Made by a program: the position numbers and the translations under genes. DNA of 64,000 nucleotides from a virus (taxonomy: Duplodnaviria > Caudoviricetes), in IMG/VR virus record IMGVR_UViG_3300026094_000002, one strand, 5' to 3'. Below are positions 5,520 through 6,918 of the stretch, piece by piece; the first letter of the stretch is position 1, and each line of letters starts with the position of its first letter. The notes beneath the pieces were generated by a model. It saw only the letters and a list, made by a program, of their open reading frames with translations. It was not told the DNA's origin and searched no databases.

Positions 5520-5846
5520 TTAATTTTGATTAATAGAAACAGAACACCCAGCGGGGTCTGTGCAAATTTTAGTCACGGATACAGAATCATTGTCATTTTG
5601 TTGAATATTTAAATTAACACCACCGCCAGAATTCGTTAAATCAAACGATGCAGAAGAACTCCCAGATTGCTCAGAGGTTATAGAGTGGTTATCTCCTACA
5701 ACGCTACCTTGTAAAAAGTTATCTCCAGATGATTGTAGAACAGAAAGTTCAAAATCATTGCCTTGTTGAAGGATATCAATTTCATCCGCATTAGCGACTT
5801 TGATCAATCCTAATACGATTATTGCCAATACCAGTTTGATAATCAT
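5520..5846 (-). CDS. Small curlin-like secreted protein (CsgB-like)
   Basis: Signal peptide then repeats IDILQQGN, LSVLQSSGDN, ITSEQSGS, LNIQQN; C-terminal VSINQN. Confidence 0.7.
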   Translation of the reverse strand: MIIKLVLAIIVLGLIKVANADEIDILQQGNDFELSVLQSSGDNFLQGSVVGDNHSITSEQSGSSSASFDLTNSGGGVNLNIQQNDNDSVSVTKICTDPAGCSVSINQN

Positions 5847-6918
5847 ATTTTATAAAATTTCCTTGTAAAATGTCTATTGAATAACCATGTGATTCACTTA
5901 GTTTAAGTTCAAATGTGTTTCCCGCTTCATCTTTTCTTCTTACTGTAAATTCTGGTGGCGGGGCTTGAAAGAATATACCAGTTTCTGGATCTAATCCCTC
6001 TGGCCTGTCTCCAAACACATATTGGTTATCTAATTGATTTGCAAGTGCGGAATTAACGTTATTACGAAGATTTTGCATAATATCAAATATATCAACTTTT
6101 AATATATCTGCAGTATCACCTAATTCTGTATTCCATATTCCATCAATTGTTTCTTGCAAACTATCCTCATCTAATTCATCAAACTCAAGATAATCCACGT
6201 CCAACGCATCTGCCTGTTCTTGCAACTCTCTTGCAGTCAAGTCATAGTTGGATTCTTTTCTCACAATCAACATACTGTTTAATTGTGATGGGTCTATATC
6301 AAGCACCAACGGCTTAGATGGTGGCTTATTTCCTGTTTCTATTACTGTAGTTTGAAATGCTTCATTCATTACAACCATACCCGCATCGGATTCAACAGTT
6401 ATTTCACCCACAAAACATTGTGCGGGTTCTCTGGGATTCACTATTCTGCATGAAGGCAATAATGTGACTGTGGAGCCTCCTATTTCATCTACTACCATCG
6501 CAAAGTCAGTACCACGTACACCAATGGTAGCGGACGGCGTTTCTATTTTTACATTCTGCTGATGCTTTTTCGCGATTTGTCCAGATGCATATTTGACAGA
6601 ACCCAGACTGATTTTTAGGGCAAGTGAACCTTCGTTTGCAGCAGGATCATACACAAATTCATCTATAACAAGACGAGAATGCTCTGTGACATCAACACGA
6701 GTATCATCCACAAAGTCAATTCTCATCCTGCCTTTTTCGGTCACAGCAGTATCGTAGGATTCTACTTCTGTGCCTTGCTCACCCTGAATAACGGACTCTT
6801 CACGTTCTAACACGCCCGAGCCTGATATTTCTGACACGCTACCTATTGCGGCGTGTGCAGAAATATTAGTCAGACTGATCAATATCAACAGTAGCGTTAT
6901 CGCCTTCAAATGTTGCAT
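5791..6918 (-). CDS. FecR-domain secreted protein with curlin-like C-terminus
   Basis: Signal peptide (start MQHLK), FecR motifs DTRVDVTEHSRL and IETPSATIGVRGTDF; ends GIGNNRIRIDQSR. Confidence 0.85.
   Translation of the reverse strand: MQHLKAITLLLILISLTNISAHAAIGSVSEISGSGVLEREESVIQGEQGTEVESYDTAVTEKGRMRIDFVDDTRVDVTEHSRLVIDEFVYDPAANEGSLALKISLGSVKYASGQIAKKHQQNVKIETPSATIGVRGTDFAMVVDEIGGSTVTLLPSCRIVNPREPAQCFVGEITVESDAGMVVMNEAFQTTVIETGNKPPSKPLVLDIDPSQLNSMLIVRKESNYDLTARELQEQADALDVDYLEFDELDEDSLQETIDGIWNTELGDTADILKVDIFDIMQNLRNNVNSALANQLDNQYVFGDRPEGLDPETGIFFQAPPPEFTVRRKDEAGNTFELKLSESHGYSIDILQGNFIKYDYQTGIGNNRIRIDQSR

Follow-up and report, generated by a model that had tools for sequence, protein, structure and literature searches.

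We have analyzed a 64,000-nucleotide stretch of viral DNA (Duplodnaviria; Caudoviricetes; IMG/VR record IMGVR_UViG_3300026094_000002), here called the window, and within it a 380-amino acid protein of the FecR family encoded between two curlin genes. The gene belongs to a curli module of the alphaproteobacterial type (type VIII secretion), in which six consecutive minus-strand genes have the order csgF, csgG, curlin, FecR, curlin and CHASE2 cyclase. The order is identical in the annotated records of Methylophilales phage Melnitz and Pelagibacter phage HTVC008M, and in the window and both phages curlin, FecR and curlin follow one another with overlapping reading frames. By tblastn against phage records, the FecR proteins of HTVC008M and Melnitz share 43-45% identity with that of the window. 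Given this match and the common gene order, the window is, as judged from sequence, a marine T4-like myophage that carries a phage curli module and has these two phages as relatives. The module sits in a stretch of low GC content (~37%), and nearly all large open reading frames (ORFs) are co-directional. The genes of the module and the parts of the FecR protein are listed below, with confidence values (pLDDT, predicted local distance difference test; pTM, predicted template modeling score) from AlphaFold2 (AF2) models; φ denotes a hydrophobic residue.

8345..8836, minus strand: csgF homologue, first gene of the module (Pfam CsgF 44.1 bits, E 2.8e-11).
7512..8348, minus strand: csgG homologue, outer-membrane curli pore lipoprotein (Pfam CsgG 185 bits, E 1.2e-54).
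6866..7552, minus strand (ORF open to 7606): large acidic curlin, probably 228 amino acids from M19; signal peptide, then φxφxQxGDN-type repeats; C-terminus GDNATVDIDQSD.
5791..6933, minus strand: FecR-domain accessory protein, 380 amino acids (Pfam FecR 41.1 bits against a cutoff of 24; AF2 mean pLDDT 81).
6292..6852, minus strand: FecR/PupR-CCSSD-like β-domain, residues 28-214 (pLDDT >90).
6013..6291, minus strand: acidic, poorly ordered linker, residues 215-307 (pLDDT 38-67; 21 D+E against 5 K+R; partly helical in AF2).
5794..6012, minus strand: C-terminal β-domain (C-domain), residues 308-380, six strands (modeled alone in AF2, pLDDT 89, pTM 0.74).
5794..5916, minus strand: curlin-like tail, residues 340-380, in the successive segments TFELKLS, ESHG, YSIDILQ, GN, FIKYDYQT, GIGN, NRIRIDQ and SR.
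5520..5846, minus strand: small (second) curlin, 108 amino acids; C-terminus C-x5-C-SVSINQN; its first 56 nucleotides overlap the FecR tail in another frame.
3441..5495, minus strand: CHASE2 adenylate/guanylate cyclase, last large gene of the module (Pfam CHASE2 145.8 bits, Guanylate_cyc 79.5 bits).

For the large curlin and FecR the start codons probably lie downstream of the longest-ORF starts. The curlin likely begins at M19 (7552), and FecR at M6 (MQHLKA..., as in homologues) or later; its own cluster (P0001) is called at 363 amino acids.

The FecR protein consists of a signal peptide and three further parts. The signal peptide occupies residues 1-28, a hydrophobic N-terminal leader with its putative cleavage site between AHA and A, and the first domain starts just after it, at about residue 28. 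This domain places the protein in the FecR family (PF04773; PupR/FecR periplasmic domain), with a profile score above the curated cutoff and the common fold. The model matches the PupR CCSSD (6ovm_R) with Z = 15.4 and a root-mean-square deviation (rmsd) of 2.7 over 135 aligned residues, and 4m0h_A with Z = 13.7. Residues 27-121 also match 5ix9, the MpIBP/LapA anchoring (retention) domain of the cell surface (bioRxiv 10.1101/198937), with Z = 9.7, an rmsd of 2.2 Å over 73 of 76 residues and 22% identity. That stretch is part of the larger FecR-like domain, and the match may reflect a common β-arrangement; the models also suggest that FecR-type domains and the retention plugs of type I secretion system (T1SS) adhesins may be related folds. 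A sequence search of the PDB with the FecR profile gave spurious hits to the linker only.

In two distant homologues of 622 and 565 amino acids (P0261 and P0307) both end domains are kept, and the middle segment measures 250-330 residues of low-complexity sequence rich in N, T and S. Since only the linker expands in these proteins, the middle segment is a spacer. Extra curlin repeats in the long homologues were considered and ruled out, as the extension is low-complexity linker alone. The full-length AF2 model was built on a 125-sequence alignment and is confident in the C-domain over residues 312-380. In the ESM Atlas the C-domain model matches only its own viral family, with TM = 0.80-0.83.

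The C-terminus of the FecR protein (5791-5886, minus strand) reads GYSIDILQGNFIKYDYQTGIGNNRIRIDQSR, followed by the stop codon. The first-pass annotation had noticed that the protein ends like both curlins, and all the strings it quoted for the three proteins are present in the translations. The small curlin terminates in GCSVSINQN, and its mature form begins after the signal peptide with DEIDILQQGN, sharing IDILQ with the FecR tail. What FecR and both curlins have in common is one terminal strand, turn-N-x-φ-x-φ-x-Q-x-x-COOH. In Escherichia coli CsgB ends in ...IRVTQR and CsgA in ...NATAHQY. We scored the ending with a loose C-terminal pattern, [GNSTD]x0-2-φ-x-φ-x-Q-x0-3-end, which occurs in 6 of the 225 ORFs of the window; three of the six are these consecutive genes. 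A 145-amino acid ORF at 23986-24423 likewise ends in a strand of the φxφxQ type (SIAITQKG). The codons for IDILQ in the FecR tail and the small curlin differ at four of five positions, so the likeness between the two lies at the protein level. A recent gene conversion or DNA copy between them was rejected on the same ground.

The tail is conserved in homologues, as the first-pass annotation required of it. Among 24 homologues of 49-82% identity the consensus is G-Y-x-I-D-x-x-Q-...-Y-D-Y-x-x-G-x-G-x-N-x-I-x-I-x-Q-S-x, in which Y351, Q357, G368, N372, I374 and Q378 are invariant, and Q378 is the sole invariant column in an alignment of 127 C-domains. The loose pattern is found in all 120 close FecR homologues. 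For distant homologues an exhaustive HMMER search was used, giving 124 cluster representatives at E ≤ 1e-30, and the 94 of at least 300 amino acids were scored; 72 have the pattern. Several of those that fail simply have a few extra residues past the Q, and many distant homologues align over the N-terminal domain alone. The pattern is also present in 116 of 120 large-curlin homologues, against a background of 54 in 4634 ORFs (1.2%).

We compared the tail with the curlins using profiles. By hhalign, the final 44 residues of FecR align colinearly with the final 45 of the large curlin over 41 columns, at 27% identity and P = 0.008; the two share the succession φxφxφ-S/T, turn, φxφxQ, turn, strand, G/N turn, φxφxQ-S-x. 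In terms of repeats, the last ~41 residues of FecR correspond to the last 1.5 of the curlin. The local score of 16.9 compares with a column-shuffle null of 8.75 ± 2.1 and the global score of 14.6 with 3.0 ± 2.1; none of 120 shuffles reached either value. Reversed profiles gave 13.0 (local) and 6.9 (global). Other β-rich windows of FecR gave at most 11.8 and 5.0 in the N-domain, and at most 12.6 and 8.6 where they overlap the C-domain. In a database of ~5000 proteins the first non-curlin hits of a hidden Markov model (HMM) of the curlin tail were FecR proteins, and the first hits of a FecR-tail HMM beyond its own family were curlins. The best FecR domain hits end within five residues of the C-terminus in 93 of 100 cases, with the last curlin strand lying over the last 13 residues of FecR. 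Across nine loci the mean pairwise local score of tail against tail was 26.8, compared with 20.8 ± 0.8 after shuffling (z = 7.3).

Some distant FecR members are, from their sequences, more curlin-like than the copy in the window. A bacterial member (P0333) ends in GGGGNVLSITQTQ, which fits the canonical curlin spacing G-x-G-N-x-A-x3-Q, and at another locus (L086) FecR ends in ...LNISQDGSSVYQKINSGGTTTITIIQK and the curlin in ...IGVTQSGTTAKTVTINSTGNSNNISVNQSN. A regular expression of this canonical type, GxG(x)NxφxxxQ, was tried as a feature of the whole family and proved limited to lineages, being present in 51 of 120 close and 9 of 94 distant tails. Viewed with lineage-specific profiles, the resemblance of the tail to the curlin terminus appears real, if modest. 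It could in principle have arisen by chance and be functionally meaningless; the individual cross-family HMM E-values are just 0.45-3 per sequence, and the hhalign P values are 0.002-0.015. Yet the ending is conserved across more than 200 homologues down to ~30% identity, against the 1.2% background, and its curli context is strict. We regard chance as very improbable.

That context was established by a scan of one genome per prokaryotic species, which returned 80 loci. Four of them (L001-L004) contain full-length relatives with a phage-type curli module. They are titled as Rhodobacteraceae, Pirellulales and Legionellales metagenome-assembled genomes (MAGs), have phage-like neighbors and probably represent phage contigs that were binned with bacteria, so that their taxonomic labels are unfit for inferring bacterial hosts of the module. 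In all six phage-type loci the tail is present, together with csgG, csgF and curlins. The other 76 loci encode bacterial FecR-domain proteins that match the N-terminal domain only. All 76 are without the tail and without csgG, csgF or a curlin in their neighborhood, and 47 have a CHASE2 cyclase homologue within 7 kb. Eight further divergent homologues with the tail were checked. Five stand beside called csgF and csgG genes (P0255, P0333, P0389, P0265 and P0325), two are on short contigs with curlin-like neighbors only (P0278 and P0248), and the eighth is on a 1.7-kb contig that is uninformative. Thus csgF and csgG were detected beside a tailed gene in 11 loci besides the window. The P0333 locus is a 345-kb bacterial contig with housekeeping genes, csgF, csgG and curlins and no cyclase, and the curli link is therefore more constant than the cyclase link. 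The FecR domain generally accompanies CHASE2 sensors, while the tail accompanies curli, occurring only in FecR homologues of curli clusters (0 of 76 outside them, and all readable tailed neighborhoods inside). Many alphaproteobacterial FecR proteins beside CHASE2 cyclases (L005-L080) have a different conserved basic tail, ...G-x-x-I-E-R-T-[IL]-R-K-[IVL]-[SL]-P-F, an unrelated motif that may be a partner-binding or sorting signal.

The bacterial loci could be taken to mean that the protein is a periplasmic co-sensor only, acting with its cognate CHASE2 partner. The C-domain would then be an ordinary small β-sandwich for another ligand, and its likeness to curlin would be convergent, arising from polar, N/Q/D-rich amphipathic β-strands in an AT-rich phage. 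Such a role fits the 47 of 76 bacterial loci that have a CHASE2 cyclase and no curli genes, the pairing of LysM+FecR proteins with CHASE2 kinases (PMC5192318), the weak alignment of the C-domain model to β-sandwiches and not to curlin, and the lack of a Curlin_rpt hit. It fits poorly with the distribution of the tail: every homologue that we found within a curli cluster has it, and the 76 FecR proteins outside such clusters all lack it. Nor does it fit the P0333 locus, where csgF, csgG and curlins occur without a cyclase. Moreover the resemblance to curlin exceeds that of all other β-rich windows of FecR and of the reversed and shuffled controls, and the only invariant residue of the C-domain is Q378. 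We consider a role as co-sensor alone to be rather unlikely, though it is the most serious of the alternatives.

Prediction of a heteromer between FecR and curlin had been suggested in the first-pass annotation. We co-predicted the C-domain (alignment A3) with the mature large curlin (alignment A4, residues 19-228) in three runs. The median score was 0.35 (runs of 0.34, 0.50 and 0.35), compared with 0.00 for the best control; contacts agree to at least 95% between the three runs, and the pLDDT of the partners is at least 81. Of 80 solved complexes 58 reached the mark for such predictions, as did 2 of 110 mismatched pairs; at scores of 0.60 or less, only seven of the 80 solved complexes did so, together with both of the passing mismatches. 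The prediction lends weak support to docking of the C-domain on the large curlin, and slightly raises its odds.

Our preferred reading, to which we give a probability of about 0.55, is that the 380-amino acid protein is a Sec-exported, three-part accessory subunit of the phage curli module whose C-domain docks on curlin, and that it is not an iron regulator. A folded β-domain of the FecR/PupR type would be joined through a flexible, acidic linker, whose length varies, to the ~70-residue C-terminal β-domain. The last strands of the C-domain would imitate the last one-and-a-half repeats of the neighboring curlin, closing with N-x-φ-x-φ-x-Q-S-x-COOH. The domain would dock by β-strand stacking on curlin subunits or on the end of the fiber, as an anchor, nucleator or cap. 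The FecR-like domain would allow another partner to bind, the likeliest candidates being the CsgG/CsgF pore and the periplasmic CHASE2 domain of the cyclase encoded in the module. The window encodes FecR in the same operon as the CHASE2 membrane protein (cyclase, 3441-5495), and since secreted FecR-domain proteins adjoin CHASE2 sensors in many bacteria the CHASE2 domain is the most plausible address of the N-domain. We know of no system in which a FecR-CHASE2 interaction has been shown. CsgE and CsgC/H are absent from the module (PMC9599517, PMC3521004), which leaves the role of anchoring, nucleating or capping vacant. The analysis shows the domain architecture, the conserved tail, its restriction to curli clusters and its likeness to the curlin terminus; we infer from sequence and context that the protein may bind curlin, lie in the periplasm or at the surface, and perhaps be coupled to the cyclase. 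The first-pass annotation had proposed passage through CsgG or capping of the fiber, with a physical link between fiber and sensor, and in this protein each of these may occur.

A number of observations weigh against docking on curlin. The search with the Pfam Curlin_rpt HMM that the first-pass annotation had called for was negative: it gave no hit at E ≤ 1 with the last 39 residues or the whole FecR protein, and hits to 0 of 127 homologous C-domains at E ≤ 10. The curlins of the module are themselves marginal by this test, the large one scoring 18.6 bits, slightly below the cutoff of 20.7, and the small one giving no Pfam hit, Curlin_rpt included. The large curlin is nevertheless a member of a family in which many homologues have a precomputed PF07012 hit (its own cluster, P0121, is of 228 amino acids), and the small curlin is linked by phmmer to the second curlins of L001 and L081 with E = 2e-9. 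The hhalign probabilities are just 2-12%, and alignment of the broad C-domain profile A3 with the full curlin profile A4 covers 10 columns only, at a probability of 4%. The minimal curli repeat is X6-Q-X-G-X2-N-X10 with the core QxGxxN (PMC3521004). FecR in the window has a single core, QTGIGN at 366-371, with only nine residues after it, and QxGxxN was rejected as a feature of the family, being present in 4 of 120 close and 0 of 94 distant homologues; the cognate curlins average 2.0 cores per protein. Nor are the FecR tails clearly closer to the curlin of their own locus than to other curlins (permutation p = 0.054).

Fold searches with the AF2 model of the C-domain (Foldseek on the PDB, VIA-align wide, AFDB Swiss-Prot and the ESM Atlas) gave nothing above noise beyond the domain's viral family: there was no match to solved or predicted CsgA or CsgB and no Foldseek hit at E ≤ 0.001, and the best PDB Z was 3.6, to generic β-sandwiches. 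The six strands may form either solenoid-like rungs or a small sandwich; the two-residue turn G358-N359 resembles a hairpin at its position more than the arc of a solenoid. In addition, the association with curli comes largely from one clade or family and does not represent many independent events. By standard tests the tail is not a recognized curlin repeat. What stands of the earlier claim is the conservation of the tail, its confinement to curli clusters and a resemblance to the terminal strand or strands of curlin above the compositional and β-strand controls; what falls is the Curlin_rpt match, a match of the model to CsgA or CsgB and a conserved QxGxxN core.

The endings could instead be a shared export or recognition signal, in which φ-x-φ-x-Q-x-x-COOH marks three substrates of CsgG/CsgF in a system without CsgE. 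FecR would be the third cargo, and its co-assembly with the fiber would not be required. In every locus examined the motif lies at the extreme C-terminus of the three proteins, its Q being followed by 0-3 residues, and the factor missing from the module, CsgE, is the one that supplies substrate recognition in E. coli (PMC9599517, PMC3521004). Curlins, however, generally end in such a repeat strand, so the ending is explained by repeat structure alone. Two divergent loci keep the motif in FecR and not in the curlin, which ends in VRTTN (L084) or SCEASC (L085), and a folded β-domain of 190 residues is an unlikely cargo for a pore of ~1 nm (PMC9004378) unless it is unfolded. We think an export signal unlikely.

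A more elaborate version of the docking model is a tether across the envelope. The FecR-like domain would be folded in the periplasm, unable to pass CsgG and bound to CHASE2, with the variable acidic linker running through the CsgG/CsgF pore, in the manner of the LapA retention module in its TolC-like pore, and the C-domain forming the first rung of the fiber outside. The phage-encoded fiber would then be anchored to the infected cell and be mechanically or conformationally coupled to cAMP synthesis. This agrees with the three-part layout and with the 5ix9 match. It is reasoned from analogy, and we would call it a long shot.

The protein can be set beside several known systems. Compared with the curlins CsgA and CsgB, it shares a Sec signal peptide, a gene within the csgGF cluster and a terminal N-x-φ-x-φ-x-Q-x(-x)-COOH strand after a G/N-rich turn. 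It differs in that the tail has ~1.5-2 degenerate units in place of at least five tandem repeats, with no Curlin_rpt hit, and in that the unit is fused behind a 190-residue FecR-like domain and a long linker. The anti-sigma factors FecR and PupR (6ovm) are alike in the fold of residues 58-222 (Z = 15.4) and in the Pfam FecR hit, and in these known systems the domain binds a periplasmic partner protein. Unlike them, the protein of the window has a signal peptide that appears cleavable, and it has neither a cytoplasmic anti-sigma domain nor a transmembrane helix. Its operon neighbors are csgG, the curlins and the cyclase, with no extracytoplasmic function (ECF) sigma factor and no TonB-dependent transducer. 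Its published description as an iron-dependent regulator is not supported by this architecture.

Secreted FecR proteins linked to CHASE2 are also alike: a signal peptide and a FecR domain are encoded next to a membrane sensor with CHASE2, and a second domain of the protein could determine the ligand. In the BiofilmReg operon of Burkholderia a LysM+FecR protein is encoded beside a CHASE2 kinase (PMC5192318); the window has the curlin-like C-domain instead of LysM, and cyclase output instead of a kinase. The T1SS adhesins LapA and MpIBP (5ix9; bioRxiv 10.1101/198937, PMC5550230) have a comparable layout of a folded N-terminal β-module, a flexible linker and a surface-active C-terminal part. The similarity is in fold only, as they are secreted by a T1SS through a TolC-like pore, in contrast to Sec and CsgG for the FecR of the window. 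CsgE and CsgC/CsgH, small β-proteins of the periplasm, bind curlin and regulate its export or its premature polymerization. They have no sequence or fold similarity to the FecR protein, which would act by mimicking a curlin strand.

The module itself is of a published kind. In pelagimyophages, HTVC023P-type podophages and Melnitz it consists of csgF, csgG, csgA/B, FecR, a second csgA/B and adenylate cyclase, and the genes and their order are identical to those of the window (PMC9599517, PMC7029224, PMC9004378). It was described by Zaragoza-Solas et al. 2020 (PMC7029224) and Buchholz et al. 2022 (PMC9004378), and FecR and the cyclase were included by Wittmers et al. 2022 (PMC9599517); the Melnitz paper states that csgA/B are absent (PMC9004378). 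These papers treat FecR as a putative iron-related regulator, with no mention of a signal peptide, a C-terminal domain or a likeness to curlin.

Some further features of the module and its surroundings were observed. The length of the second curlin ranges between 108 and 441 amino acids across six loci (window 5520-5846; L001 5912-6664; L003 4594-5604; L004 8019-8906; L081, which is Melnitz, 5965-6990; L082 5947-7272), and in all of them the protein terminates in a cysteine pair, C-x4-5-C-x-V-x-V-x-Q-x, which may close the last turn with a disulfide. The first curlin has two invariant cysteines in mid-protein (C96 and C104 of alignment A4). Two small paralogous membrane proteins of 114 and 106 amino acids, with the common motif GFPI...A, follow the cyclase on the minus strand (2807-3151 and 3154-3474). 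Their homologues are upstream of csgF in L001, L004 and Melnitz, and the two genes seem to accompany the curli module without keeping a fixed position. A ClpP protease homologue (8900-9484) lies directly upstream of csgF in the window.

The first-pass annotation knew of no description of such a fusion. For the tail this holds, in that we found no description in the searched literature of a curlin-like C-terminal domain, of its restriction to FecR proteins linked to type VIII secretion, or of the three-part architecture. The gene, on the other hand, is published at this position of the operon (PMC9599517) and its Melnitz counterpart has a GenBank annotation. The novelty is confined to the tail, which appears to be undescribed. 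Phage curli modules are reported from every one of the 65 GOV2.0 ocean stations examined, accounting for ~0.1% of assembled viral proteins (PMC9599517). Their hosts, SAR11 and OM43, lack curli genes of their own. If FecR is a fiber-binding subunit with an end that mimics curlin, its interpretation in terms of iron falls, and residues 372-380, including N372 and Q378, would provide a short mutable element for direct tests. It would also be a natural case of a folded domain attached to a functional amyloid via one or two mimic repeats, which would be relevant to the engineering of curli display. For the alphaproteobacterial and phage type VIII systems, which have neither CsgE nor CsgC, it would provide a candidate for the missing anchor, nucleator or cap.

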